Shown: positions 1 to 20,835, counted from the first letter of the stretch. The stretch: 24,000 bases of DNA from Devosia sp. 66-22 (GCF_001899065.1 NZ_MKUZ01000029.1:13503-37502), one strand, 5' to 3'. Notes: generated by a model not told the origin, from the sequence alone. Numbers and translations: made by a program.

Positions 1-1443
1 GTAATTGGCCGCGAGGAGATCGAACACGGTCGCGACCAGGGCCTCGCCTGAAGCCAGTTGCAGCCGCTTGACCGGCACGGCGCGGACGAGGACGCTCGCA
101 TGGTCGGTACCTTCGAAATGGTCGTGTTCGCGGTTGCCGAAATAGGGGAACGCCACGTCGGCTACCGTGTCGCGTTCCTCTTCGAGGACCATCGACATCT
201 TGAGCTCGACATCCTTGCCGGCGCCGTCCTTCTGCTCGAGGTTCCATTTGCCGCCCCCGTCCCATCGGTGCCCGGCTGAACCCTGCGGCGTGACCACCCT
301 GCCGGTCTTGCCGTCGATGGCGACGGTCTTCCACTCGGAGTTCTTGTCCTCACCAAGGCTGTCGGCGAAGTCCGACGCCCTCAGTAGCCGCTCCGGCACG
401 AGGTGCCCGTCCTGCTCGACGAGGCGCACCAGCATCGGCATGTCGGTGTAACGACGGCAGTAGTCCTCGAAATACTCTGCCTGCCGGTCGAGATGAAACT
501 CCCTGAGGATCACGTGCCCCATCGCCATCGCCAACGCGGCGTCGGTCCCCTGCTTGGGGTGGAGCCAGACGTCGGCGAACTTGGCCGCCTCGGAATAGTC
601 CGGCGAGACCACTACCGACTTGGCGCCCTTGTAGCGGGCCTCGGTGTAGAAATGCGCGTCCGGGGTGCGGGTCTGGGGCACGTTCGAGCCCCACAGCATC
701 AGGAAACCGGCATTGTACCAGTCAGCCGATTCCGGCACGTCGGTCTGCTCGCCCCAGGTCATGGGCGAGGCTGGCGGCAGGTCGCAGTACCAGTCGTAGA
801 ACGACATGCACACCCCGCCCAGCAGCGACAGGTAACGCGAGCCGGCAGCATACGAGATCATCGACATCGCCGGGATCGGCGAGAAGCCAATCACCCGGTC
901 CGGCCCGTGCTTGCGCACCGTGTAGGCGTTGGCCGCCGCGATGATCTCGTTGACCTCATCCCACCGGGCTCGCACGAAGCCACCATGGCCGCGAACCTTG
1001 GTGTAGTCCCGGCGCTTGGCCGGCGTCTCCACGATCGAGGCCCATGCAGCGACCGGCGCTTTCGTCGCCCGCGCCTCGCGCCAGAGCCTGAGCAGGCGTG
1101 AGCGGATCAGTGGGTGCTTAACCCGGTTGGCTGAATACATGTACCATGAGTAGCTGGCGCCGCGGGCGCACCCACGCGGCTCATGGTTCGGCAAATCGGG
1201 GCGGGTGCGAGGGTAGTCTGTCTGCTGGGTCTCCCAGGTGACGATGCCGCCCTTGACGTAGATCTTCCACGAGCACGACCCCGTGCAGTTCACACCGTGG
1301 GTCGAACGAACGATCTTGTCGTGCTGCCAGCGGCCCCGATACGCCTTCTCCCAAGTGCGGCTCTCGGTAGTGGTGACGCCATGGCCCTCTGCAAAAGTCT
1401 TTGGCTGCGTGAAAAAGTTCAGCCGATCGAGTAGCAGGCTCAT
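1..1443 (-). CDS. narG: Respiratory nitrate reductase alpha subunit NarG, N-terminal 481 codons (continues beyond window start)
   Basis: The minus-strand frame is open from 1443 to position 1. It is absent from the ORF track because it has no stop inside the window. My translation starts MSLLLDRLNFFTQPKTFAEGHGV..RWQHDKIVRSTHGVNCTGSCSWKIYVKGGIVTWETQQTDYPRTRPDLPNHEPRGCARGASYSWY.. and continues ..CDLPPASPMTWGEQTDVPESADWYN... This follows the E. coli NarG N-terminus closely, including the H-x3-C-x3-C FS0 cluster motif. The ATG at 1443-1441 overlaps the narK stop (TGATG). Confidence 0.93.
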   Translation of the reverse strand, partial: MSLLLDRLNFFTQPKTFAEGHGVTTTESRTWEKAYRGRWQHDKIVRSTHGVNCTGSCSWKIYVKGGIVTWETQQTDYPRTRPDLPNHEPRGCARGASYSWYMYSANRVKHPLIRSRLLRLWREARATKAPVAAWASIVETPAKRRDYTKVRGHGGFVRARWDEVNEIIAAANAYTVRKHGPDRVIGFSPIPAMSMISYAAGSRYLSLLGGVCMSFYDWYCDLPPASPMTWGEQTDVPESADWYNAGFLMLWGSNVPQTRTPDAHFYTEARYKGAKSVVVSPDYSEAAKFADVWLHPKQGTDAALAMAMGHVILREFHLDRQAEYFEDYCRRYTDMPMLVRLVEQDGHLVPERLLRASDFADSLGEDKNSEWKTVAIDGKTGRVVTPQGSAGHRWDGGGKWNLEQKDGAGKDVELKMSMVLEEERDTVADVAFPYFGNREHDHFEGTDHASVLVRAVPVKRLQLASGEALVATVFDLLAANY

Positions 1444-4193
1444 CAGACTCTCCGTTCCATACGGCGTGCTTCGCCGATGGCGTCGCCGCCCCGGCTTCTT
1501 TCGATGTCGTGCAGCAGGCCGCCGCGACGTGTGTAGACGAACCAGGTGAGCGCGAGGCAGGTCACGTAGAAGACGAGGAACGCCCATAGCGCCGCCGAGG
1601 CGTCGCCGGTCATCTGGATGGAGGTGCCGTAGGCGCGGGGGATGAAGAACATCCCATAGGCCGCCACTGCCGACGTGAAGCCGATGATCGCCGCCGATTC
1701 CTTGTCGGCCTGCCGAACCCGGTCGGTCGGCGCCAGCTCGGGCATCAGCCGGTCGATCTCCTTGCGCATGATCACTGGGATCATCTGGAAGGTAGAGGCA
1801 TTACCGATGCCGGTGGCGAGGAACAGCACCATGAACATTGCAAAGAACCCCCAGAACGCGCCCGGCTGTTCCTTGATCGCCATGAAGTAGAGTACGCCGC
1901 CCACTGCTGCGATCATCAGGACGAATGTCCAGAAGGTGACCCGCGCGCCGCCCCAGCGGTCCGAGATCCAACCCGTTCCGGCGCGTGCGAGCGCCCCGAC
2001 CAGCGGTCCGAGGAAAACGTACTGAAGCGAGTTCACCTCGGGGAAGGCGATCTTGGCGAGCAGCGGGAACCCGGCCGAGTAGCCGATGAAGGAGCCGAAC
2101 GTGCCGGTATAGAGCCAGCACATCAGCCAGTTGTGGGCCCGGCCGAAGATCACCGCCTGGTCCTTAAGCGAGGCCTTGGCCGAGGCGATGTCGTGCATCC
2201 CGAACCAGGCGGCAAGCGCCGAAATGATGAGGAACGGCACCCAGATGAAGCCGGCGTTCTGCAGCCACAGCCGGGTCGTCTCGTTCACCGCCTGCGGCTC
2301 GCCGCCGATTGCGCCGAACACCCCGATCGTGATCACCAGCGGCACGAGGAACTGCATCACGCTGACGCCGAGGTTCCCGAGACCGGCGTTGAGGGCCAGC
2401 GCGTTGCCCTTCTCGCGCTTGGGAAAGAAGAAGCTGATGTTGGACATCGAGGAGGCGAAGTTGCCGCCGCCGAAACCGCAGAGCAGCGCGAGTACCAGGA
2501 AGATCAGATACGGAGTGTCCGGGCTCTGAACCGCGTAGCCGATGCCCATCGCGGGGATGATCAGCGAGGCGGTGGTCAGCGTGGTCCACAGGCGCCCGCC
2601 GAAGATCGGAACCATGAACGAGTAGAATATTCTGAGCGTCGCGCCGGAGAGGCCCGGCAGCGCCGCCAGCCAGAACAACTCGTCGGTCGTGAACTTGAAC
2701 CCGACACTCGGCAGCTTGGCGATGACCACGCTCCACACCATCCAAACCGCGAAGGCCAAGAGCAGATTGGGGATAGAGATCCACAGATTCCGGGCAGCGA
2801 TCTTCTTGCCCTTCGCTTGCCAGAAGGCAGGGTCTTCCGGCCGCCAGTCCTCGAGCACTTTCGGCCCGGTGGCGGCCAACTCTCCCCTATGCAGTGGCTG
2901 CATCTCCGGCAGCTGCGGCAGCTTGGCGAGAGCTTCCTGCGATGCCCCCTTCTCCATCGCGCGGATCGAGAAGTGCATCCACAGCAGCGATACCATCACC
3001 ACTCCGAACAGAAGCATGAAGCTGCTGGTCCACAGGCCCGTCACGTCCAGCAGCACCCCGAAAGCGATCGGCAGAATGAACCCGCCCAGCCCGCCGATCA
3101 TGCCGACGAGACCGCCTACCGCCCCGACACTGCCCGGATAGTAGACTGGAATGTGCTTGTAGACCGCCGCCTTACCGAGCGACATGAAGAAACCAAGCAC
3201 GAACACGACCATGACGAACGGTATGAGGTCCATCTGGGTGGAGAAGGCGATCGCGCCGTGCACCCCGTGGATGACGTAGTCGGTCTGGGGATAGGCGAGC
3301 ATGAAGGTGCACACGGCGGCGACGCCGAACGTGACATACATCACCGCCCGAGCACCGTAACGGTCCGACAAGTACCCACCGTAGACGCGGAACAGGCTGG
3401 CTGGGATGGAGAAGGCGGCGGCGAGCAGCCCCGCCATTTTGATGTCGAGGCCGTACACGCCCATCAGGTAGCGCGGCAGCCACAGCGAGAGCGCCACGAA
3501 AGCACCGAAGACGAAGAAGTAGTAGAGCGAGAAGCGCCAGACCTGGATATTCTTGAGCGGCTCGAGCTGCAGCAGCGTGCCTTTGGCCTTGATCCCCTTG
3601 GTCCGGCGTTCGACCAAATCCGGATCGTCCCTGGTGGTGAACCAGAAGATCACCGCGGTGACTACCAGGGCTCCCGCCCATATCTGCGCAACCATTGGCC
3701 AGCCAAAGGCGACCATGACGAAAGGGGCAGCCAGCTTGGTGACCGCAGCTCCGACATTGCCCGCGCCGAAAATGCCTAGTGCCGTGCCCTGCTGGCTGGT
3801 CGGATACCATTTGGAGACATAGGCGACGCCCACGGCGAAGGATCCGCCGGCGAGCCCCAACCCCAGCGCCGCGAGGAGCACCATCTCGTAGCTCGTCGCA
3901 TATGAAAGGAGCCAGGTCGCGACGGCTGCGAGGAGCATGGTGAGCACGAAGACGACACGCCCGCCGACTTGGTCGGTCCAGATGCCAAGCAATACGCGAA
4001 CCAGCGACCCCGTCAGGATGGGAGTGCCAACGAGCAAACCGAGTTGCGCGTCGCTCAACCCCAGGTCAGCCTGGATCTTGACCCCGATGATTGAAAAAAT
4101 CGTCCACACCGCGAAGCACACGGTGAAGGCGAAAGTGCTCATTCCCAGAGCTGTGTTCTGCTGTGCTTTGGTGGCACCTGCCGGTACGGCCAT
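1443..4193 (-). CDS. narK: Fused two-module MFS nitrate/nitrite transporter (NarK1-like N-half, NarK2-like C-half, 916 aa)
   Basis: 916-aa ORF. The C-terminal half, from about residue 446 (..LEDWRPEDPAFWQAKGKKIAARNLWISIPNLLLAFAVWMVWS..), aligns by eye along its length with E. coli NarK. The N-terminal half is a second 12-TM MFS module. A GAGGGGGG Shine-Dalgarno sequence precedes the ATG at 4193. The gene lies immediately upstream of narG and is coupled to it. The same fused architecture is known for Paracoccus NarK. Confidence 0.92.
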   Translation of the reverse strand: MAVPAGATKAQQNTALGMSTFAFTVCFAVWTIFSIIGVKIQADLGLSDAQLGLLVGTPILTGSLVRVLLGIWTDQVGGRVVFVLTMLLAAVATWLLSYATSYEMVLLAALGLGLAGGSFAVGVAYVSKWYPTSQQGTALGIFGAGNVGAAVTKLAAPFVMVAFGWPMVAQIWAGALVVTAVIFWFTTRDDPDLVERRTKGIKAKGTLLQLEPLKNIQVWRFSLYYFFVFGAFVALSLWLPRYLMGVYGLDIKMAGLLAAAFSIPASLFRVYGGYLSDRYGARAVMYVTFGVAAVCTFMLAYPQTDYVIHGVHGAIAFSTQMDLIPFVMVVFVLGFFMSLGKAAVYKHIPVYYPGSVGAVGGLVGMIGGLGGFILPIAFGVLLDVTGLWTSSFMLLFGVVMVSLLWMHFSIRAMEKGASQEALAKLPQLPEMQPLHRGELAATGPKVLEDWRPEDPAFWQAKGKKIAARNLWISIPNLLLAFAVWMVWSVVIAKLPSVGFKFTTDELFWLAALPGLSGATLRIFYSFMVPIFGGRLWTTLTTASLIIPAMGIGYAVQSPDTPYLIFLVLALLCGFGGGNFASSMSNISFFFPKREKGNALALNAGLGNLGVSVMQFLVPLVITIGVFGAIGGEPQAVNETTRLWLQNAGFIWVPFLIISALAAWFGMHDIASAKASLKDQAVIFGRAHNWLMCWLYTGTFGSFIGYSAGFPLLAKIAFPEVNSLQYVFLGPLVGALARAGTGWISDRWGGARVTFWTFVLMIAAVGGVLYFMAIKEQPGAFWGFFAMFMVLFLATGIGNASTFQMIPVIMRKEIDRLMPELAPTDRVRQADKESAAIIGFTSAVAAYGMFFIPRAYGTSIQMTGDASAALWAFLVFYVTCLALTWFVYTRRGGLLHDIERSRGGDAIGEARRMERRV

Positions 4194-12652: not shown

Positions 12653-13777
12653 TCACCCGGAAGGAGCTGAGTTTGGCACTCGCAACGCCCCCAGGATGCG
12701 TCGTGCAAGCCCCACGATTGCAAGTGTCCACGCTGCGAGCGCGACAAAGACCAACACCTTGGGGATCAGATCGAGGAAGCCGTAGCCCATGGCTCGATCG
12801 AACTGGTAGGTGCTCGTCGTATACATCCCCAGCGGAAAGACCATTCCCCAGACCGCTGGCTCGTAGGCGAAACGGTCGCGCATCCAGACATAGCGCCACA
12901 GCATCAGCAAAAACAGGAACGGGATCCACCAACTCGCCACCGCCCAGAAGAAAAACGTGAATCCCTTGAGGAACGGGAGGAGGGGACCGAGGAGCGGCCA
13001 GGTCTCGCCCCGCAGGATCAGCACCGAGCCGGCCAGCGCCGTGATCGCCACAGCACCCATGTTGATCCAGTAGGGCGGACTGAAGTCTTCGCGGCTCATC
13101 GGCACGAAGGTGAGGCGATAAAAGATCAGCGGAATGATCGCCAGATAGAGCATGCAGCCGATCAGGAACATCGCAATCACCTGGAACTGAACCGCCTCCG
13201 GCGGCGGCGTGCTCACGTCGATCACGCCGCGCAACACCACCACCGACTGCGTCGAGACGGCGGCGATTAGCCATGCGCCGTTGATGCCGCGCTTGAGCGT
13301 GGGCTTGCGCGCGCGCACTGTTACGGCAGTGAAGAAGATGTACATAATCGCGAACCACAGGATCAGCCCGAGCCACCAGAGCACTGTGCCGACGCCCGTG
13401 GCCCCTATCACCACCACATTCTGCGTACCCAGAACGCAGGTCCCTGCCACGATGGTGAAGAAGCCGGGCGCCCGCTGGTGGTCTGAAATGTCGCGCATCA
13501 GTTCGGCGCGGAACCGAAGGGCCCGCACGATCGTCAATACCCAGAGGACGGGCCAGGCCACCCAGTTGACACCGATCAGTGCCAGTGCAACCGGGCGCAG
13601 CCCCATGAAGTGGCAGGCGATTGAGACCACCCCGGTGGCCATGACCAGTGCGAAATAGCCCGGAAATAGTGAGACCGCGCCATCAAGGATCACTGCAGCC
13701 AATCGCGCCGGGAGACGGGGCGGCTGCGAAGCGAACCCGGCACGGTCATCCCCGCGCATATCTGAAAACCAGCTCAA
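12653..13777 (-). CDS. TehA/TDT (SLAC1-homolog) family anion channel/transporter, 10 TM
   Basis: 374-aa polytopic protein with ..FPGYFALVMATGVVSIA.. and overall hydrophobic periodicity typical of the tellurite-resistance/C4-dicarboxylate transporter (SLAC1) family. The alternative start at 13759 is equally possible. Confidence 0.75.
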   Translation of the reverse strand: MSWFSDMRGDDRAGFASQPPRLPARLAAVILDGAVSLFPGYFALVMATGVVSIACHFMGLRPVALALIGVNWVAWPVLWVLTIVRALRFRAELMRDISDHQRAPGFFTIVAGTCVLGTQNVVVIGATGVGTVLWWLGLILWFAIMYIFFTAVTVRARKPTLKRGINGAWLIAAVSTQSVVVLRGVIDVSTPPPEAVQFQVIAMFLIGCMLYLAIIPLIFYRLTFVPMSREDFSPPYWINMGAVAITALAGSVLILRGETWPLLGPLLPFLKGFTFFFWAVASWWIPFLFLLMLWRYVWMRDRFAYEPAVWGMVFPLGMYTTSTYQFDRAMGYGFLDLIPKVLVFVALAAWTLAIVGLARRILGALRVPNSAPSG

Positions 13778-14102
13778 GCTGAAGGGAGATCAGAACCAAG
13801 GAGGCGTTGAGTGCCCAGGTGACGGTCAGCCATCTCGCAAGCGTGCCCCAGAAGGGATCGGAATTGACCGCTGAGCGCCAGATCGCCACGACGATCCAGA
13901 CCGTGTAGGCCGCCGAGAAGAGGATCAGACCCTGCTGAACGTCGAGTCGTTCCTGATACATGGCGATAGCGTACAGGCCGGCGATGACGAGGCTCAATCC
14001 GACGCCGTACCCCCAGAACACGTTCCCCAGCGGCGCTTTTCCGCGCCAGGCCCGCCGTTCCGGAGCTAAGAAGAGGAACACGAAATCTGCGATCCAACTC
14101 AT
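13746..14102 (-). CDS. Small membrane protein (3-4 TM), unknown function
   Basis: 118 aa from the ATG at 14102, with GGGAGG 6 nt upstream. It sits 40 nt downstream of the nsrR stop, and its 3' end overlaps the TehA-like start by 14-32 nt. No family was recognised. Confidence 0.5.
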   Translation of the reverse strand: MSWIADFVFLFLAPERRAWRGKAPLGNVFWGYGVGLSLVIAGLYAIAMYQERLDVQQGLILFSAAYTVWIVVAIWRSAVNSDPFWGTLARWLTVTWALNASLVLISLQLELVFRYARG

Positions 14103-14141
14103 TCCCGCCTCCCGTCCATCCCGAGCCTGCCCCGCCCCCAA

Positions 14142-14591
14142 CTACGCCGCCCTAGCCTCTGGTAACCCTAGAACTCGGCGCATCGGATGGTTCGGGACCG
14201 TGAGGTCTTCGAGCGTATATCTGTCGAGCACAGCGAGGTAAGCGGCGAGGGCTTCCCCAAGCACGGATTTCAGCCGGCAGGCAGGCAACAGCGTGCAGGA
14301 ACTGCGCCCTGCCTCGAAGCACTCGACGAGGCGGAAGTCGTCTTCGGTTGCCCGGACCACGTCACCGACGCGAATCTCGGTTGACGGCCGCTGAAGCCTC
14401 AGGCCGCCCTTGTTGCCGCGCGTCGATGTGACAAAGCCGTATTTGACCAGTCCCTGCGTCACCTTCATCAGGTGGTTGCGCGAGACGCCGTAGCGCTCCG
14501 CCACCTCCTGAATTGTGGCAAGCCCGTCGGACTTGATTGCCAGGTACATCAAGAGGCGGAGAGACAGGTCGGTGAAATGGGTGAGCCGCAT
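14142..14591 (-). CDS. nsrR: Rrf2-family NO-sensing repressor NsrR
   Basis: From the internal ATG at 14591 the protein reads MRLTHFTDLSLRLLMYLAIKSDGLATIQEVAERYGVSRNHLMKVTQGLVKYGFVTSTRGNKGGLRL.., an Rrf2 winged HTH. It carries the three-Cys cluster ligand pattern ..ECFEAGRSSCTLLPACRLK.. (compare E. coli NsrR ..C..C.I.PACRLK). The track's 60-aa N-terminal extension is implausible. Confidence 0.85.
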   Translation of the reverse strand: MRLTHFTDLSLRLLMYLAIKSDGLATIQEVAERYGVSRNHLMKVTQGLVKYGFVTSTRGNKGGLRLQRPSTEIRVGDVVRATEDDFRLVECFEAGRSSCTLLPACRLKSVLGEALAAYLAVLDRYTLEDLTVPNHPMRRVLGLPEARAA

Positions 14592-14599
14592 GGTCGCAT

Positions 14600-14628
14600 C
14601 CAAAGATGCATGCATCGTATTGCTTTGG
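14600..14628. promoter_or_regulatory. Candidate NsrR operator: CCAAAGATGCATGCATC..CTTTGG, containing the perfect 12-bp palindrome GATGCATGCATC
   Basis: AAGATGCAT (14603-14611) matches 9 of 11 positions of the enterobacterial NsrR half-site AAGATGCYTTT. GATGCATGCATC (14605-14616) is a perfect palindrome. CCAAAG and CTTTGG arms flank it. The site lies 9 nt upstream of the nsrR ATG in the divergent intergenic region. Confidence 0.45.
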
Positions 14629-15398: not shown

Positions 15399-16247
15399 TT
15401 AGCTCCCCCTCGAGTCTCGAAAGGCGGTGGGTGACAACCCCGTCACGCGCCGAAACTCCCGGCTGAAGTGCAGGGGATCAGGATAGCCACAACACAGCGC
15501 AACCTCCGAGATCGGCGTGTCGGTCTGCACCAGAAGCCGCTTGGCGGCGTTCATGCGTTCGCGCCGAAGCCAGTTCATTGGTGAAGACCCGACGACCTTT
15601 CGAAACCGCCTGTGCACCTGCGATGAACTCAGTCCCATCAAGGCGCTGAAATCGACGATCGACCAGGCCCGCCCGAGTTCCATCCGCGCCTGCTGCATTA
15701 TGTCCGCCATGGGCTGGGGCGCGGAGGAGGATCGCTCTGGCGACCGGTTAGCAACGAGCGCGGCAATGATGGCGGCCACTGCGGCGCTGTTCTCCGGCTC
15801 GCTATCGGCATGGTTGGCGGCCAGCCGTTGCTTGATCCGGGAGAACTGCAGACTGAGGGCCTCATCGACGGTCGAGACAATGATCGGCCTGGCACGAGCC
15901 CCCAGCATCTCGGCGGCTTCATCGAGCCCGAAACCGCGCATGCCGAACCAGAGATAGCTCCAGCCGTGGGATCCTCGCGCGCAGGCATGTCGGTACTCGC
16001 GAGACGTGTCCAGCCAGGCAATGCTGCCCTGAGGACACTCATAAGTTCGACCCTCGACCTCCATCTCACCGGTTCCGGCCAGCGTCAGGATCAGCACGTG
16101 CTGCTTGAACCTGCGACGGACGGGAGGTTCGGAAGGTGCCGCCGTCGCCTTGCCTGCGGCCAACACCCGATATGGGAATGCCGCCGTGTGTGCCGGAGTG
16201 TAGAAATAAATCTCATCGTCGCGGCCCGATGCGCTGGAATGAAACAT
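15399..16247 (-). CDS. AraC/XylS-family transcriptional regulator
   Basis: The C-terminus carries the double HTH ..WSIVDFSALMGLSSSQVHRRFRKVVGSSPMNWLRRERMNAAKRLLVQTDTPISEVALCCGYPDPLHFSREFRRVTGLSPTAFR... The N-terminus is a cupin-like sensor domain. The start at 16247 (MFHSS..) is preferred, but 16307 is possible. Confidence 0.88.
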   Translation of the reverse strand: MFHSSASGRDDEIYFYTPAHTAAFPYRVLAAGKATAAPSEPPVRRRFKQHVLILTLAGTGEMEVEGRTYECPQGSIAWLDTSREYRHACARGSHGWSYLWFGMRGFGLDEAAEMLGARARPIIVSTVDEALSLQFSRIKQRLAANHADSEPENSAAVAAIIAALVANRSPERSSSAPQPMADIMQQARMELGRAWSIVDFSALMGLSSSQVHRRFRKVVGSSPMNWLRRERMNAAKRLLVQTDTPISEVALCCGYPDPLHFSREFRRVTGLSPTAFRDSRGS

Positions 16248-16421
16248 GTGAGTCTCCGCAGGTCGCGCATGCGATTTTTCTCCATGCCAAGCGCGTTGTC
16301 CATCCATTCCTCTGCCATCGAGAGCTTGATAACCTCAAGAAGTGATCCTGAAGGCCGAGGCATCCGCTCGCGCGAGCCAAGTCCATCCGGTCACAGGTTG
16401 CGCGGCTGGAGGGAGAGCAGC

Positions 16422-17954
16422 ATGCCGGACGGCTTGGAACGTCTGCGGTCGATCGTCGAGGATGCCAGCCTCAGCGTGGCGCAGAAGGCGCGGCAACTCG
16501 CCATTGCGGCTGACGACCTGCTGGCCTACCTGCCCCTCGAGGCGCAGACGCAGCGTGCGCTTGACGAACGGGTGATCTGCGACATGTACGAGGGCCATGC
16601 GCCCTATACGCCGCGATATGTGTTGGCCGACTTCTCGGTCGTGCTCCGCAGGGGGAGCGATCATCTGGAACTGCTGGCGCCCACGTCGCTCGCCGATGCG
16701 ATCCACACCCTTATGATCGCCTATCATCACGTCCCGTCCGTGACCGGAATGCCAGTCTATCTGGGGCAGCTAGACGAATTGCTTCTGCCCTTCTGCGACG
16801 ACGTCGGTGACGAGGAACTCTATGCCGAGATCAAGCGGTTGTGGCGCTACCTCGACCGCACACTGCCCGATGCCTTCATGCATGCCAACGTCGGTCCTTC
16901 GGACAATCGGGTGGCCAGGACCATCTTGCGGGTCGATGCCGAGCTCAAGCAGATCGCGCCGAACCTGACCCTGCTTTATGATCCCGAAGCCAGCGGTGAG
17001 GCCCTGCTGGCCCGCGCCATCGAGAACATCCTCGAGTGCTCAAAGCCCCACGTCGCCAATCATCCTTTGCACACGGCAGCTTTCGATGCGCGCGGCTACG
17101 GCATCGTTTCCTGCTATAATGCCCTACCCTTGGCGGGCGGCGCATCAACCCTTGTGCGGGTCAATCTCAAGAAGGTCGCCGAGCGGTCGCGTGACGCCCG
17201 CGAGTTCCTGGATACCATCCTGCCGAACTATGTGGGGTTGGCCTTTGACCTGATGCAGGCACGGATCGACTACCTGTTCGACCACTCCGGTTTCTTCCAG
17301 AGCTTCCTCGTCGAAGAAGGATGGATCGACAGAACGCGGTTTGCGGCAATGTTCGGGGTGTTCGGCATGGCCGAGGCGGTCAACACGCTCGAACGGAAGG
17401 CGGGGCGCTCCGCCCGTTACGGCAGCAATGGCGGTGCCGACGACCTCGGACACGCCATCTCGGCCCGGCTGGCCGAACTGGTGGCGGCGCAGCCGCTCGA
17501 CAATGTCTGGCGCGGTCGGGCGATGCTTCATTCCCAAGCGGGCCTCAGCACCGATTCGGAGACGACACCCGGGGTTCGTATCCCCTATGGCAGCGAGCCC
17601 GATCCCGTCACCCATATCAGGGCCCTGGCGCCCCATCACAAGTACTATCCCTCGGGGATCAGCGAGATCCTCACCCTGGAGGAGACCGTCAAGGGCAACC
17701 CGCAGGCCGTTCTTCAGCTCTGCAAGGCAGCCTTTGCGAGCGGCTTCCGCGAATTCACTGCCAATGTCGCCAACAATGACCTCGTCCGAGTGACCGGCTA
17801 CATGATCCGCCTGTCCGACGTGAAGCGGCACAACGAACTGAAGGTTTCGCGCACCAATACGACGGCGCTGGGCGCCGAGGCGGCGAGGCTGACCGGCATT
17901 CTGGCGCGCAAGCCGCGAGTCGTGGCTCATGAACTCGCCGCTGGCGACCGTTAG
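16422..17954 (+). CDS. yjjI: YjjI-family glycyl radical enzyme (510 aa)
   Basis: From the ATG at 16422 (GGAGGGAG upstream) the length and sequence pattern resemble E. coli YjjI. The glycyl-radical fingerprint ..LVRVTGYMIRLSD.. is present (Gly codon 17796-17798, about 50 residues from the C-terminus). A cognate activase follows. The track's 714-aa version (from 15810) is an antisense run-on through the AraC gene. Confidence 0.8.
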   Translation: MPDGLERLRSIVEDASLSVAQKARQLAIAADDLLAYLPLEAQTQRALDERVICDMYEGHAPYTPRYVLADFSVVLRRGSDHLELLAPTSLADAIHTLMIAYHHVPSVTGMPVYLGQLDELLLPFCDDVGDEELYAEIKRLWRYLDRTLPDAFMHANVGPSDNRVARTILRVDAELKQIAPNLTLLYDPEASGEALLARAIENILECSKPHVANHPLHTAAFDARGYGIVSCYNALPLAGGASTLVRVNLKKVAERSRDAREFLDTILPNYVGLAFDLMQARIDYLFDHSGFFQSFLVEEGWIDRTRFAAMFGVFGMAEAVNTLERKAGRSARYGSNGGADDLGHAISARLAELVAAQPLDNVWRGRAMLHSQAGLSTDSETTPGVRIPYGSEPDPVTHIRALAPHHKYYPSGISEILTLEETVKGNPQAVLQLCKAAFASGFREFTANVANNDLVRVTGYMIRLSDVKRHNELKVSRTNTTALGAEAARLTGILARKPRVVAHELAAGDR

Positions 17955-18795
17955 CAAGATCCTGACCTGGTCGTGTGTCGATGGCCCCGGCAACCGGCTG
18001 GTCATCTTCCTGCAGGGCTGCAACTTCGCCTGCCCCAGCTGCCACAATCCCCACACCATCGGTGTGTGCAATCACTGCGGCGATTGCATTCCGGCATGCC
18101 CGACCGATGCGCTGTCCTTGGTGGATGGCTTGATCGTCTTCGACGCCGATGCATGCAACAGTTGCGACGCCTGCCTCAGGGCCTGCCCGATCAGTGCTAG
18201 TCCGATGACGCATGTCTACACCGTAGAAGATATCCTCGCCCTGGTGCGGTCCAACAGAATCTTCCTCAACGGGATCACCGTCTCTGGCGGCGAAGCCACG
18301 CTGCAGCTCAAGTTCATCATAGCGCTGTTCTCGGCAATCAAGCAGGATCCGGAGCTTGCCGGCTTGACATGCTTCATCGACAGCAATGGACACTTGGGTG
18401 AACTGGCCTGGCAACGCGTCCTGCCGGTGACCGATGGCGTCATGCTCGACATCAAGGCTTTCGACAATGGCACGCACATGGCACTGACCGGCCGCTGCAA
18501 TCGGCGCAGCCTGGCGTCGGCGCGGTCACTCCACGCACACGGCAAGCTCTTCGAACTGCGCTACCTCATGATCCCCAGCCGCACCGACACCGATCTCGAG
18601 CTCGACCAGCTCGCGGAGTTTGCGAGCTCACTCGACCGGAGTCTTCGAGTCCGGCTGAATGCCTTTCAGCATCACGGCGTCCGCGGCGAAGCGCGTGAGT
18701 GGGAAAAGATGTCGCGCGCCGGAGTGGAAATGGCCGCCGAAAGGCTGCGAGCAGCCGGCCTGGCCAACGTCGTCACTCCGTCGGTCTGGATTTAG
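17929..18795 (+). CDS. yjjW: YjjW-family glycyl-radical-enzyme activating enzyme (radical SAM, with two extra 4Fe-4S motifs)
   Basis: N-terminus ..SCVDGPGNRLVIFLQGCNFACPSCHNP.. carries the CX3CX2C radical-SAM cluster (18019-18042). Ferredoxin-type motifs CNHCGDCIPACP and CNSCDACLRACP follow, as does the SAM-binding ..GITVSGGEATL... The gene overlaps yjjI by 26 nt. Confidence 0.88.
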   Translation: MNSPLATVSKILTWSCVDGPGNRLVIFLQGCNFACPSCHNPHTIGVCNHCGDCIPACPTDALSLVDGLIVFDADACNSCDACLRACPISASPMTHVYTVEDILALVRSNRIFLNGITVSGGEATLQLKFIIALFSAIKQDPELAGLTCFIDSNGHLGELAWQRVLPVTDGVMLDIKAFDNGTHMALTGRCNRRSLASARSLHAHGKLFELRYLMIPSRTDTDLELDQLAEFASSLDRSLRVRLNAFQHHGVRGEAREWEKMSRAGVEMAAERLRAAGLANVVTPSVWI

Positions 18796-18893: not shown

Positions 18894-19126
18894 ATGAACG
18901 TCCACAAGAATGCGCGTCGACCCCTCGTGGTCGAGTGCTTTTGGTTGGCGGGCATTCGCTAGGTGAGCAGCTGAGCATGCCAGCCAATCACCGACAACCA
19001 CGGCGAATGATGCTAACGGAGGTTGAGGCAACGCACCGCCGTTGTTGCCGCTTCCCGGAGCGTTGGGTATCCCCCCATCAACTGCCTCTCTGCTCTTCTA
19101 AACCGACCAAAGGTCACCCTGGGTAA
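18894..19126 (+). mobile_element. Degenerate, frameshifted remnant of an IS481-family transposase N-terminus
   Basis: The ATG at 18894 (GGAG upstream) encodes MNVHKNAR. After a +1 shift this continues as ..TPRGRVLLV.., matching the characteristic IS481-family start MN.HKNARLTP.GR..LV. Later weak echoes (..RF.., ..SSKP.. versus SSRPH) are seen before the remnant runs into the PilZ gene. No intact transposase and no inverted repeats were identified. Confidence 0.35.
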
Positions 19127-19599: not shown

Positions 19600-20835
19600 T
19601 CAAGTGTTGCTCGCGGCAGCGAGGGGAAGATCGAAAAGACGCGCCCAGGCTGTGGTCGCAGCATGCTGGATGGCTACAATGTCGGTGCCGAAGGTCCACC
19701 ACCCGTTCGCCGGCGCGACCAGGACGTCGGGCGACCAGATTGCGGATTGCAGAACGGGCCAGACGAGCAACTGCTCGTAGCAGATCAGTGTCGCTACGCG
19801 GCTGCCTCGGACGGAAACGATTGGGTTGGCGAAGAAGTCGGCCCGCGCCCCGGCCGGCTCACCAAGCATGTTCAGCCACGGTTGCCACATTGAGACTGGA
19901 ACCGGCATGCGCTCCCGGTAACGCACCACGGCATCCTGCCATGACAGCTCGAGCATGACATTGTCGTAGCCAGTCGTGTCGACGATCACGGCACCGCCAT
20001 AGACGGTGACGTCGAGATTCTGCAGCGCACCCGCCCAGAGCCGCTCGATGGTCGATGTCCAAGCGCCCAACGCACTCTCCGGCAACACGATGACCGACGC
20101 TCCCGCCTTCGCCGCTTCCCGGACGCGATTGATGGTGTCGAGATGCTGCTGGAAGTTGGCATAGTCGCCATTGCTGCCGCCGAATTTCGTGTCGACGCCG
20201 ACCCAGCCTGGCGGCAGGACGGGCGCGGTCCAGTTCGCAACGGACCAGATCCAGAGACCTCCAAGTGTCAGGATCGCGATCGGCCGAAGTCTCGTCGTCA
20301 TGACGAGGAGGCCGATCGCTGCCGCCCCAAGCCCGAACCAGCCCCAGCGCGGAAACAAGATCCCTGCGGCGGTGATCGGGTGGGCCCAGCCCACGATACC
20401 GATCGGTGGCACGCTGAGCAGCACCGCGATGATTGCGTAGCGGATCAGCCGTCCCCTGCCCGACCGTGACGTCCACAGTAACGTGTGCGTGCCAACGAAC
20501 AGAACTGACGCCGCGATCCAGAGCGCGATGCCGGCTTCGAAGCCGGCGCCGTAGAAATTGCTGACGCCCTGCGGCAGACCGCGCGAGGCGGCAAGAAAAT
20601 AGCCCGCGGCGACAAGCGCAGCGCCGAGGCGCGTCGGTGCGAGCGCCCAGAGCGCCGGGAAGAGCATCGCGGCGGGCAACAGGCGCGGCTCGCCGCTCCA
20701 CGCGATCAGCCCGGTTCCGACTGCCGCGGTGACGAGCGCGGCCGACCGAACGAAATCAGGGACTGAAGACCAGGAGCGGGTGAGCCAGTCCAAGCACGCC
20801 GGCAGCTGGGATCGGCCCGAAATATCTCGAGTCAT
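19600..20835 (-). CDS. traB: Conjugal transfer protein TraB-like: polytopic N-terminal domain plus C-terminal Lnt/CN-hydrolase-like domain
   Basis: Follows traF, as in rhizobial traAFB operons. The N-half has about 6 TM segments. The C-half has ..ASVIVLPESALG.. and ..VATLICYEQL.., resembling the Glu and Cys motifs of apolipoprotein N-acyltransferase. The start is uncertain: ATG 20835 gives an 80-nt overlap with traF, and TTG 20793 is possible. Confidence 0.6.
   Translation of the reverse strand: MTRDISGRSQLPACLDWLTRSWSSVPDFVRSAALVTAAVGTGLIAWSGEPRLLPAAMLFPALWALAPTRLGAALVAAGYFLAASRGLPQGVSNFYGAGFEAGIALWIAASVLFVGTHTLLWTSRSGRGRLIRYAIIAVLLSVPPIGIVGWAHPITAAGILFPRWGWFGLGAAAIGLLVMTTRLRPIAILTLGGLWIWSVANWTAPVLPPGWVGVDTKFGGSNGDYANFQQHLDTINRVREAAKAGASVIVLPESALGAWTSTIERLWAGALQNLDVTVYGGAVIVDTTGYDNVMLELSWQDAVVRYRERMPVPVSMWQPWLNMLGEPAGARADFFANPIVSVRGSRVATLICYEQLLVWPVLQSAIWSPDVLVAPANGWWTFGTDIVAIQHAATTAWARLFDLPLAAASNT

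Follow-up and report, generated by a model that had tools for sequence, protein, structure and literature searches.

The window analysed here, a single stretch of 24,000 nucleotides from Devosia sp. 66-22, carries a genuine and intact YjjI/YjjW pair, a glycyl radical enzyme (GRE) and its radical-SAM activase from a family that is already catalogued. The AraC-family gene that diverges from yjjI is a conserved partner of yjjIW and is accompanied by a conserved operator-like motif. The three genes and their intergenic region probably represent a functional two-gene glycyl-radical system under dedicated AraC-type control. To our knowledge, YjjI/YjjW is the sole GRE pair of Escherichia coli without an assigned reaction. 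Features of the locus, in coordinates of the window, are:

15399–16248, minus strand: AraC-family regulator with cupin ligand-binding and HTH_18 domains (Pfam), likely start at Met21; the open reading frame reaches 16307
16271–16284, plus strand: GCGA-N6-TCCA copy 1, GCGATTTTTCTCCA, a putative AraC site that overlaps the araC promoter-like element
16274–16302, minus strand: sigma-70-like araC promoter, TGGACA-17-AAAAAT, 9 of 12 consensus matches (consensus match only)
16372–16385, plus strand: GCGA-N6-TCCA copy 2, GCGAGCCAAGTCCA, a putative AraC site 50 nt upstream of the yjjI ATG
16422–17954, plus strand: yjjI, YjjI-family glycyl radical enzyme, 510 aa (TIGR04040 and PF11230 profiles)
17112–17114, plus strand: codon of the finger-loop cysteine Cys231, in GIVSCYNALPLAGG
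17796–17798, plus strand: codon of Gly459 in the glycyl loop, VRVTGY
17929–18795, plus strand: yjjW, radical-SAM activase, 288 aa (TIGR04041; Radical_SAM and Fer4/Fer4_7 domains)
18019–18042, plus strand: radical-SAM motif CX3CX2C (CNFACPSC), YjjW residues 31–38
18917–18934, plus strand: weak terminator-like hairpin with a T-rich tail, roughly 120 nt downstream of yjjW (consensus scan)

A preliminary description of the window had proposed a 510-aa open reading frame with the VRVTGY signature, a candidate thiyl-radical cysteine loop (GIVSCYNALPLAGG), and an overlapping activase with CNFACPSC and two ferredoxin-type clusters, all of which were found in place. YjjI scores 679.8 bits against the curated NCBIfam profile TIGR04040 (cut-off 498.3), covering profile positions 2–497 of 497, and 650 bits against the Pfam profile PF11230 (formerly DUF3029). 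In an 82-sequence alignment drawn from Alpha- and Gammaproteobacteria, Clostridia and Fusobacteriota (37–85% identity), residues Ser230, Cys231, Tyr232, Asn233, Arg456, Thr458 and Gly459 are invariant; also invariant family-wide are Cys53, Glu57, Arg65, Tyr66, His103, His154, Arg246, His370, Gln372, Arg386, Glu392, His398, His406 and Arg443. Clostridia and Fusobacteriota often carry the family, which comprises more than 3,000 clusters at 90% identity and 455 representatives, mostly fragments, at 50% identity. The small number of clusters at 50% identity, together with the 58% identity to E. coli YjjI, indicates one conserved function. No reaction is assigned to YjjI in the literature searched, and a 2026 GRE review is not among the full-text matches to 'YjjI'.

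YjjW scores 357.7 bits against TIGR04041 (cut-off 250.2), and contains two ferredoxin-type four-cysteine motifs, CNHCGDCIPACP and CNSCDACLRACP, in addition to the radical-SAM motif. The yjjI and yjjW genes overlap by 26 nt. Their adjacency is observed in all 96 YjjI-bearing loci of our survey (90/90 in the first set and 6/6 in later loci), and the pairing is obligate. The number of terminator-like elements found in the consensus scan, including the one that follows yjjW, is not above the shuffled expectation.

The AlphaFold (AF2) model of YjjI (pLDDT 88.5, pTM 0.89) predicts a fold of the GRE type, a ten-stranded α/β barrel, in which Cys231 and Gly459 are each located at the tip of a β-hairpin (strands 226–229/233–236 and 454–457/460–463, respectively). 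A Foldseek search of the PDB with this model returned 154 matches at E ≤ 0.001, and all 50 of the 50 matches listed are GREs. The top matches among those listed are class III ribonucleotide reductases (RNR; NrdD), with E of 9e-17, TMq of 0.69–0.73 and 12–14% identity, and PFL-like GREs were matched with E values of 1e-13 to 1e-10. A profile alignment of YjjI with NrdD (hhalign, probability 69%, E 4e-5) begins at NrdD residue 117 and pairs Cys231 with NrdD Cys384 and Gly459 with NrdD Gly681. Tyr66 is placed opposite NrdD Cys175 and Val229 opposite Met382, equivalences that are provisional and could be shifted, and no YjjI cysteine falls opposite the NrdD Zn-ribbon ligands in this moderate-confidence alignment.

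The residues around Cys231 also differ from those of the other GRE classes. Ser230–Cys231 pairs with Cys418–Cys419 of PFL in a profile match that is not significant (E 0.5), and the Cys-Cys pair of pyruvate and ketoacid formate-lyases is absent from all 82 sequences, in which the first position is the invariant Ser230. The GRE eliminases (GDH, PD, CutC, HypD and IslA) carry a Cys-x-Glu motif that places the general base two residues past the catalytic cysteine; this motif is absent from YjjI, where the corresponding position is the invariant Asn233 in the same 82 sequences. The window's YjjI is matched neither by the NrdD and NRDD (PF13597) models of NCBIfam and Pfam nor by Pfam PF02901, and the clostridial members show only faint or weak NRDD matches in precomputed annotations. 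Since the residues diagnostic of reductases, PFL and eliminases are all missing from YjjI, it constitutes a separate GRE family, in agreement with the earlier view that it resembles no characterised class.

The AraC-family protein has the layout of AraC/XylS regulators, with an N-terminal cupin domain for ligand binding and a double HTH at the C-terminus; it matches the Pfam models HTH_18 (7e-25), HTH_AraC (1.5e-18) and AraC_binding (1e-12), and reaches no characterised AraC equivalog model in NCBIfam. The divergent open reading frame previously described (15399–16307, minus strand) is present, and alignment with five orthologues moves its likely start to Met21 at 16248, giving a protein of 282 aa. 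The promoter-like element, which runs from 16302 to 16274 on the minus strand, fits this start. Within the alpha-type clade (34 distinct loci), 11 loci have an AraC orthologue upstream of yjjI in divergent orientation, and it is absent outside this clade among the loci surveyed; in other lineages, LysR or Crp/Fnr-type regulators, or none, are found next to yjjIW. The motif GCGA-N6-TCCA is present on the plus strand of the AraC–yjjI intergenic region in all 11 AraC-bearing loci, compared to 4 of 80 others on either strand. The window's match at 16271–16284 is the sole exact one in the window, an equivalent of the second copy (16372–16385) is found at −53 in locus L085, and tandem copies with a spacing of 21–22 bp occur in L086, L091 and L027. 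The proposal of a dedicated regulator is thereby strengthened, and we infer from conservation alone that the AraC protein may bind GCGA-N6-TCCA.

Further upstream, the window contains the following genes:

1–~1445, minus strand: narG, 5′ part
1443–4193, minus strand: narK
12653–13777, minus strand: SLAC1/TehA-family anion transporter, contiguous with the 131-aa membrane-protein gene
13746–14141, minus strand: membrane protein, 131 aa, contiguous with the Rrf2 gene
14142–14591, minus strand: Rrf2-family regulator (Rrf2 superfamily model)

The narG and narK genes reported earlier are thus both present, while the gene that had been called nsrR can be assigned to the Rrf2 family only. Its protein passes the Rrf2 superfamily model and falls below the equivalog cut-offs of both RirA (144.3 bits, cut-off 193) and NsrR (132.6 bits, cut-off 182), and its cysteine spacing, C-x7-C-x5-C, is one that we take to be RirA-like. 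The block from the transporter to the Rrf2 gene (12653–14591) is context and lies outside the yjjIW system. TraB/TraF genes of the Ti-type tra system and a match to the Atu_Ti1 sRNA in the yjjIW region indicate that the region is on a Rhizobiales conjugative element. Across the 96 loci, the neighbours of yjjIW vary (anaerobic ubiquinone genes, nucleoside catabolism, LysR regulators), and no conserved metabolic partner hinting at a substrate was found among them. In enterobacteria, yjjI is reported to be induced anaerobically and activated directly by FNR (PMC3688515, PMC3792023, PMC3228777), the direct activation in E. coli being described in PMC3688515. A role of yjjIW in anaerobic life generally is well supported.

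In the mechanism that we favor, YjjW, which has a single radical-SAM cluster plus two auxiliary clusters of the ferredoxin type, would reductively cleave SAM and take a hydrogen from Gly459 of YjjI. The glycyl radical stored at Gly459 would then move to Cys231, on the finger loop opposite. The resulting thiyl radical would take a hydrogen from the substrate, a common metabolite of the cytoplasm that would be small and probably anionic, held by the family-invariant residues enumerated above from Cys53 to Arg443. The S-C-Y-N catalytic loop and the residues aligned with the reductase positions are unlike their counterparts in RNR, in PFL-type C–C cleavage and in the C-x-E eliminases, so that the reaction is most likely one undescribed for GREs. 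On sensing the substrate, or a metabolite related to it, the divergently encoded AraC protein would occupy the GCGA-N6-TCCA sites and so control yjjIW transcription. The module, located in an accessory region for anaerobic respiration (narGK and an Rrf2 regulon) beside Ti-type tra genes, would be used under anoxia and not specifically against NO. The radical transfer, the type of substrate and the newness of the reaction are all inferences.

A stronger version of this proposal, which we advance tentatively and consider somewhat more apt to fail than to hold, is that YjjI represents a new GRE reaction type, with a distinct active site, a common metabolite that gains relevance during anoxic respiration as its substrate, and the AraC protein as its specific sensor. 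The distinct site would consist of the S-C-Y-N finger loop, the invariant Tyr66 and Arg65 where reductases have a cysteine, and a conserved loop rich in His, Glu and Arg (residues 370–406).

Action on a nucleoside, nucleotide, pentose or nucleobase-derived substrate is unlikely, although several neighbourhoods point to it. One example would be a radical 2′,3′-diol dehydration, akin to the first half of the RNR reaction, that feeds nucleoside catabolism. The nearest solved folds among the Foldseek matches listed are class III RNRs, deoCABD is divergent from E. coli yjjI, and in seven Gilliamella genomes genes for adenosine deaminase, CpdB, cytidine deaminase and pyrimidine-nucleoside phosphorylase precede yjjI on the same strand, with UshA (5′-nucleotidase) between the phosphorylase and yjjIW in five of the seven. 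Additionally, a DHFR gene overlaps the start of yjjI in Caminicella, xanthine-dehydrogenase-family genes flank yjjIW in L090 and L091, and substrates of this kind are present in every host phylum. However, few lineages are involved, the synteny may simply be inherited in the related Enterobacteriaceae and Orbaceae, and some 55 Vibrio, Photobacterium and Shewanella loci lack the linkage, as do most alpha loci.

The original suggestion that yjjIW serves nitrate respiration or nitrosative stress specifically, through an inducible chemistry and in cooperation with the Rrf2 (NsrR-like) and nar neighbours, now looks distinctly improbable, and is partly supported in that the tie holds for the closest relatives only. 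In these (L086–L089, YjjI 77% identical), the Rrf2 gene (82%), the SLAC1 gene (65%) and two small membrane-protein genes are shared, although arranged differently from the window, and are joined by globin, DUF2249 and DUF1858 genes. Two loci have NnrS genes near yjjIW, and L007, L009 and L010 have Rrf2 genes there. An AAGATGCAT half-site, of the kind typical of NsrR operators, lies upstream of the Rrf2 gene in both the window and L086. Furthermore, E. coli and Salmonella both show co-expression of yjjI with narG (PMC3228777). However, a window scan located GATGCATGCATC / AAGATGCAT only upstream of the Rrf2 gene, at 14605–14616, and the yjjI promoter (16249–16421) is served by an AraC gene and motif of its own and lacks an NsrR-type half-site; a copy with one mismatch falls within the coding sequence of yjjW, and a pair of such matches is about what is expected by chance. 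In the homologue survey, Rrf2 genes lie within 10 kb in only 5 of the 34 distinct alpha-clade loci and are missing at that distance from every gammaproteobacterial locus, narK is close to yjjIW in this window alone among the loci surveyed, and the nir, nor and nos families are not among the recurrent neighbour families. The abundance of the family in Clostridia and Fusobacteriota, the bit scores and cysteine spacing of the Rrf2 protein, and the reported irreversible destruction of glycyl radicals and activase clusters by NO in PFL and class III RNR (bioRxiv 10.1101/2025.02.23.639758) also argue against it. An NO- or nitrate-specific role is not well supported.

Very unlikely is a function of YjjI in O2-independent ubiquinone biosynthesis or related aromatic chemistry. 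In four Rhodobacterales loci, ubiT-ubiU-ubiV immediately precede yjjI in the same orientation, with gaps of 17–53 nt; these genes also occur with ubiD and ubiX nearby in L005 and L086, making three distinct arrangements in 6 of the 34 distinct loci; in E. coli, yhbUV (ubiUV) and yjjI are both FNR-activated (PMC3688515). However, the co-location may simply mirror common anaerobic regulation, and the linkage was not found in the gamma loci or in the window. YjjI is moreover present in Haemophilus and strongly conserved among Clostridia and Fusobacteriota, hosts that are not known to make ubiquinone. Finally, that YjjI is a minimal class III RNR for anaerobic dNTP supply is highly implausible: NrdD structures are the best Foldseek matches among those listed, and yjjIW resembles nrdDG in standing alone as two genes, one of them for a dedicated activase, but the window protein matches no NRDD/NrdD model, is only 12–14% identical to NrdD and, in the provisional hhalign alignment, has no equivalents of Cys175, Met382, the Zn-ribbon cysteines and the N-terminal ATP cone, and E. 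coli nrdD mutants are not known to grow under strict anoxia despite carrying yjjI.

The YjjI family is widespread in facultative and strict anaerobes, a picture that the window copy leaves unchanged. The leads obtained here are the placement of YjjI as a separate GRE lineage, nearest to class III RNR and devoid of its reductive residues; the AraC gene and conserved operator-like repeat of one alphaproteobacterial clade; and a few recurring neighbour themes, namely anaerobic ubiquinone genes, nucleoside catabolism and NO-responsive genes, which narrow the conditions to test. The dedicated regulator and repeat make reporter-based ligand screening possible and, if the AraC protein is a specific sensor, a GCGA-N6-TCCA promoter could serve as a reporter to identify the YjjI substrate. 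Its identification would open a new branch of GRE chemistry and fill a gap in the E. coli annotation.

Among known systems, class III RNR resembles YjjI/YjjW in its alignable glycine loop and finger-loop cysteine and its two-gene unit with a dedicated activase. In contrast to NrdD, YjjI has neither an ATP cone nor a Zn ribbon and, according to the moderate-confidence alignment, carries Tyr66 and Val229 at the positions of Cys175 and Met382, respectively; YjjW also differs from the class III RNR activase NrdG by its two additional ferredoxin-type clusters, which NrdG is not known to contain. The PFL-like GREs (PflB, the glycerol, propanediol and hydroxyproline dehydratases, CutC, IslA and PflD) share the barrel fold and the RVxGY motif with YjjI, and YjjW is an activase of the PFL-AE/GRE-AE type, whose ferredoxin inserts are also found in several activases of PFL-like GREs. 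However, YjjI is about 250–300 residues shorter than these enzymes, with Ser-Cys in place of the Cys-Cys of PFL and Asn instead of Glu two residues past the cysteine. The closest counterpart is the E. coli pair YjjI/YjjW (b4380/b4379), in which YjjI is 58% identical over 98% of its length, has the same length and the same Gly and Cys loops, and is followed by an overlapping activase gene in the same stand-alone two-gene layout. The E. coli pair has no adjacent AraC regulator, is FNR-activated and is divergent from deoCABD, whereas the window pair has a divergent AraC gene with an operator-like motif and is located on a Rhizobiales conjugative element with Rrf2 and nar genes nearby.

The window encodes a predicted glycyl radical enzyme (GRE), YjjI, its activase YjjW and a divergent AraC-family regulator, arranged as follows.

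Features of the yjjIW locus in the window
15399–16307, minus strand: AraC-family ORF, 302-codon frame (ORF list)
16271–16284 and 16372–16385, plus strand: two copies of GCGA-N6-TCCA (pattern match)
16422–17954, plus strand: YjjI, 510-codon frame within a longer open frame from 15810 (ORF list)
17112–17114, plus strand: Cys231 codon in the YjjI Cys loop GIVSCYNALPLAGG (seen in sequence)
17796–17798, plus strand: Gly459 codon in the YjjI glycyl motif VRVTGY (seen in sequence)
17929–18795, plus strand: YjjW, 288-codon frame with a 26-nt overlap with yjjI (ORF list)

YjjI matches the NCBIfam model TIGR04040 (YjjI family glycine radical enzyme) over the full profile length with 679.8 bits (cut-off 498.3), and YjjW matches TIGR04041 (YjjW family activase) with 357.7 bits (cut-off 250.2). 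Pfam assigns PF11230 to YjjI, Radical_SAM and several Fer4 models to YjjW, and HTH_18, HTH_AraC and AraC_binding to the AraC protein. YjjW carries CNFACPSC and two CxxCxxCxxxCP motifs. All motifs quoted in the preliminary description are present at the codons it claimed, and the finding is real and was correctly described. A small correction concerns the AraC protein, whose start is most likely Met21 (coordinate 16248) by alignment with five orthologues; a minus-strand promoter-like element (16302 to 16274) is consistent with this start. Rfam gave no match near the operon that would indicate a riboswitch in the yjjI leader. The pair is a new copy of a catalogued, uncharacterised family, with nothing unusual about the window copy.

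Word-indexed searches returned more than 1,331 clusters at 90% identity with the window YjjI as query and more than 3,380 with a Fusobacteriota YjjI; named sources include Devosia, Rhodobacter, Hoeflea, Roseibium, Woeseiaceae, Clostridium botulinum, Proteiniborus and Hypnocyclicus. The nearest named homologue is from a Devosia MAG (78% identity). Among plasmid records searched with tblastn, the E. coli protein is 58% identical to the window YjjI, and those of Haliovirga and a Chloroflexota bacterium are 37% identical. An exhaustive HMMER search found only 455 representatives, mostly fragments, among 1.84 billion 50%-identity representatives. An alignment of 82 sequences, spanning 37–85% identity, contains 76 invariant columns, which include C53, E57, R65, Y66, H103, H154, R246, H370, Q372, R386, E392, H398, H406 and R443, as well as the loops S230-C231-Y232-N233 and R456-x-T458-G459. 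The family is compact and its members are strongly conserved, pointing to a single function. No functional study of YjjI, YjjW, DUF3029, b4380 or HI0521 was found in the full-text literature searched: HI0521 occurs only in primer names, yjjI appears merely in an expression table of a LysR paper, and a June 2026 review of glycyl radical enzymes is not among the full-text matches to 'YjjI'.

Gene neighbourhoods were compared across 96 YjjI-bearing loci, comprising 80 from one-genome-per-species contigs (the best 80 of 593 confirmed hits), four from plasmid records and 12 from metagenome or genome contigs. Neighbours in high-GC loci were called with tblastn and a GC3-filtered ORF caller. YjjW adjoins YjjI in all 96 loci, and no other neighbour is universal. 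Counts for the alpha-type clade (at least 60% identity to the window YjjI) were made by tblastn with the window proteins and refer to 34 distinct loci. An AraC orthologue is present in 11 of these 34, divergent and 115–270 nt upstream of yjjI.

All 11 AraC-bearing loci contain GCGA-N6-TCCA on the yjjI strand of the AraC-yjjI intergenic region, compared to 4/80 other loci (within 300 nt, either strand), which supports the earlier claim of a dedicated regulator. Distant members do not share the sequence that flanks the motif, which argues that the motif is under selection, and we infer from this pattern that the AraC protein would bind it. In three loci (L086, L091 and L027) two copies lie 21–22 bp apart, the direct-repeat geometry typical of AraC-family operators. 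The window copy at 16271–16284, the only exact match to a tighter pattern in the 24 kb, overlaps the araC promoter-like element. What makes the locus worthwhile is the open function of the family, together with the putative operator as an experimental handle. The AraC gene is interrupted in the closest long relative (L085, 445–9546; 85% YjjI identity): its ligand-binding half adjoins yjjI, and an HTH fragment lies beyond about 8 kb of phage-like genes, capsid and protease genes among them. In this relative yjjIW is intact. A LysR-family gene is found no more than about 10 kb from yjjIW at 42 loci of Vibrionaceae, Shewanella and Aeromonas; at most of them it sits on the opposite strand just past the end of yjjW, and the remaining neighbours vary. 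This LysR gene (for example L067, 14007–14945, minus strand) is found in Vibrio, Photobacterium, Shewanella and Aeromonas and so spans three gamma-proteobacterial orders. Its product has no equivalog, the best model being BsrA (127 bits, below cut-off). The LysR regulator may be the gamma-proteobacterial counterpart of the AraC protein of the alpha clade.

Genes for a Ti-type TraB (541 bits, subfamily model) and TraF lie just downstream of yjjIW. An Rfam match to the Rhizobiales sRNA Atu_Ti1 (20228–20319, plus strand; 59.5 bits, gathering score 55), antisense within the traB coding region, also supports a Ti/Ri-type conjugative context. Conjugative plasmids of Rhizobiales account for most TraB homologues (400 of 558 records), and a Pelagibacterium plasmid carries the best match (68%). 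Together with the Devosia-MAG YjjI, these observations indicate that a Devosiaceae-like bacterium probably carries the locus on a conjugative plasmid or an integrated element. A megablast of the yjjIW operon against plasmids gave no match; with all 24 kb as query, matches (71–78%) were confined to the narGK and RND regions.

Among the candidate substrates, a nucleoside- or pentose-derived compound fits the phylogenetic breadth and fold ancestry of YjjI best, and is itself no more than a tentative proposal, doubtful as it stands. E. coli yjjIW is divergent from deoCABD. Seven Gilliamella genomes carry genes for adenosine deaminase, CpdB, cytidine deaminase and pyrimidine-nucleoside phosphorylase upstream of yjjIW on the same strand; in five of these genomes UshA is interposed between the phosphorylase gene and yjjI. 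In these loci (L032, L040, L046, L056, L066, L069 and L082) a nucleoside/nucleotide salvage or catabolism cluster in the region about 7 kb upstream of yjjI continues into yjjIW. In Caminicella sporogenes (L096, 7499–8008), a dihydrofolate reductase gene overlaps the yjjI start codon by 8 nt, suggesting a single operon. Contexts of other kinds also occur: C. botulinum yjjIW lies between glycine-reductase-like genes and hydEFG, and in Haliovirga a gene with a cyclic-nucleotide-binding domain, possibly a Crp/Fnr-type regulator, is divergent from yjjIW. Subunits of the xanthine-dehydrogenase/aldehyde-oxidase family (Fer2_2, FAD_binding_5, MoCoBD) flank yjjIW at two loci (L090, 12549–16206; L091, 4505–7205), and two more MoCoBD proteins were found elsewhere in a Pfam census of neighbours.

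The preliminary description proposed a role in nitrate respiration or nitrosative stress. A nitrogen-metabolism role was also predicted for yjjI by biclustering in 2011, from co-expression with narG and FNR-/NarL-like motifs (PMC3228777). An FNR ChIP study lists yjjI, beside yhbUV, among the operons that FNR directly activates under anoxia (PMC3688515), and anaerobic induction in Yersinia intermedia was 4.3-fold for yjjI and 2.1-fold for yjjW (PMC3792023). The window contains narK-narG; NarK (1443–4193, minus strand; 916 aa) consists of two fused MFS transporter domains and lies directly upstream of narG, with a second MFS match at residues 22–405 and NarK-family matches at 446–890. The window also holds a contiguous unit of an Rrf2 gene, a 131-aa membrane protein and a SLAC1-family transporter, divergent from a 153-aa membrane-protein gene. 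A 77%-identical lineage (L086–L089) shares the Rrf2 (82%), SLAC1 (65%) and two membrane proteins (43%, 53–55%) in a different arrangement around yjjIW, and adds globin, DUF2249, DUF1858, ubiDX, ubiTUV and, at a contig end, a TraB-like gene.

SLAC1 was considered as a substrate transporter for yjjIW and rejected: in the window it forms a contiguous same-strand block with the Rrf2 gene, and it belongs to a gene run divergent from the Rrf2 gene in L086, and was therefore assigned to the Rrf2 unit. The Rrf2 protein falls below both the NsrR and RirA equivalog cut-offs; it has C-x7-C-x5-C spacing, and its RirA score is slightly above its NsrR score. The Rrf2 promoters of the window and L086 both carry AAGATGCAT, which resembles the NsrR half-site. 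In the window (14589–14620), the Rrf2 gene, with a likely start at 14591, is preceded by a perfect palindrome, GATGCATGCATC, within AAAGATGCATGCATCG; the orthologous L086 promoter (15780–15800) has AAAGATGCATCATTG. These sites look like an NsrR-type half-site and an autoregulatory operator that would also serve the divergent gene for the 153-aa membrane protein.

The proposed tie to nitrate or NO fades outside the L086–L089 lineage: the Rrf2 regulator and the SLAC1/TehA-family transporter each occur within 10 kb in only 5 of the 34 alpha-type loci. Among the 280 ORFs that the census covered, all lying within 5 kb, U32 peptidase, UbiD and AraC recur most often of the specific families; NnrS was seen twice, and nir, nor and nos are not among the top families. 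The yjjI promoter has no AAGATGCAT-type site. An FNR/FixK box (TTGAT-N4-ATCAA, up to two mismatches) lies upstream of yjjI in 18/92 loci versus 22% of random windows, showing no enrichment, and a TTGA-N5-TCAA in the window was rejected as such a box for its wrong spacing. The sole perfect box in the 92 loci, TTGATGTGAATCAA, is in Pararhodobacter (L092, ~9857, −144 from yjjI), between yjjI and a divergent SLAC1-family gene. Members of the family also abound in Clostridia, and enzymes of the GRE class are inactivated by NO, as reported for PFL and class III RNR (bioRxiv 10.1101/2025.02.23.639758). A role specific to NO or nitrate is thus unlikely, and we conclude that yjjIW is not part of such a pathway; rather, it is part of an anaerobic-lifestyle gene set that tends to co-travel in some alpha-proteobacteria.

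A ubiquinone-related role is very unlikely and would fit alpha-proteobacteria only. There, ubiT-ubiU-ubiV, usually with ubiD/ubiX, occurs in 6/34 alpha-type loci in three different arrangements, and UbiT, UbiU and UbiV pass their NCBIfam equivalog cut-offs. In four Rhodobacterales loci, ubiV ends 17–53 nt from yjjI on the same strand. These genes lie directly upstream of yjjIW (about 2 kb upstream, same strand) in L007, L009, L010 and L011, and nearby with ubiD/ubiX in two further lineages (L005; L086, 2376–7042). No mention of this linkage was found in the literature searched.

Taken together, the evidence best supports a functional glycyl-radical system with AraC-gated expression. YjjW would install the radical on Gly459 of YjjI, Cys231 would carry it to the substrate, and the AraC protein would gate yjjIW expression; YjjI, with an active site unlike those of known GRE classes, would act on a common metabolite under anoxia.

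The AlphaFold2 model of YjjI from the 82-sequence alignment is confident (mean pLDDT 88.5, pTM 0.89). Cys231 is at a turn between strands 226–229 and 233–236, and Gly459 at a turn between strands 454–457 and 460–463; in the model they form the pair of facing hairpins by which glycyl radical enzymes are defined. A PDB sequence search with the protein and with the family profile found nothing significant. A Foldseek search of the model against the PDB gave 154 matches at E ≤ 0.001, and all of the best 50 are GREs. The top matches are class III ribonucleotide reductases (8P2S_B, E 9e-17; TM-score on query 0.69–0.73, 12–14% identity), followed by hydroxyproline, glycerol and propanediol dehydratases, PFL2, PflD and PFL (E 1e-13 to 1e-10).

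Alignment by hhalign to a single NrdD sequence gave a weak local match only. The match was better against an NrdD alignment of 13 sequences, drawn from E. coli and from phage loci: YjjI 10–487 aligned with NrdD 117–710 (probability 69%, E 4e-5). In this profile-profile alignment, the NrdD thiyl Cys384 and Gly681 pair with C231 and G459, whereas NrdD Cys175 and Met382 are replaced by Tyr66 and Val229, and no YjjI cysteines lie opposite the zinc ligands; that YjjI is a true ribonucleotide reductase is highly improbable. A weak profile match pairs C418-C419 of PFL with S230-C231, and where GRE eliminases have a glutamate two positions past the catalytic cysteine, YjjI has an invariant asparagine. 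By predicted fold and motifs, therefore, YjjI is a glycyl radical enzyme, and it lacks the features by which reductases, formate-lyases and eliminases are defined. Its description as resembling no characterised GRE class is correct, with the qualification that in structure it comes closest to the class III reductases.
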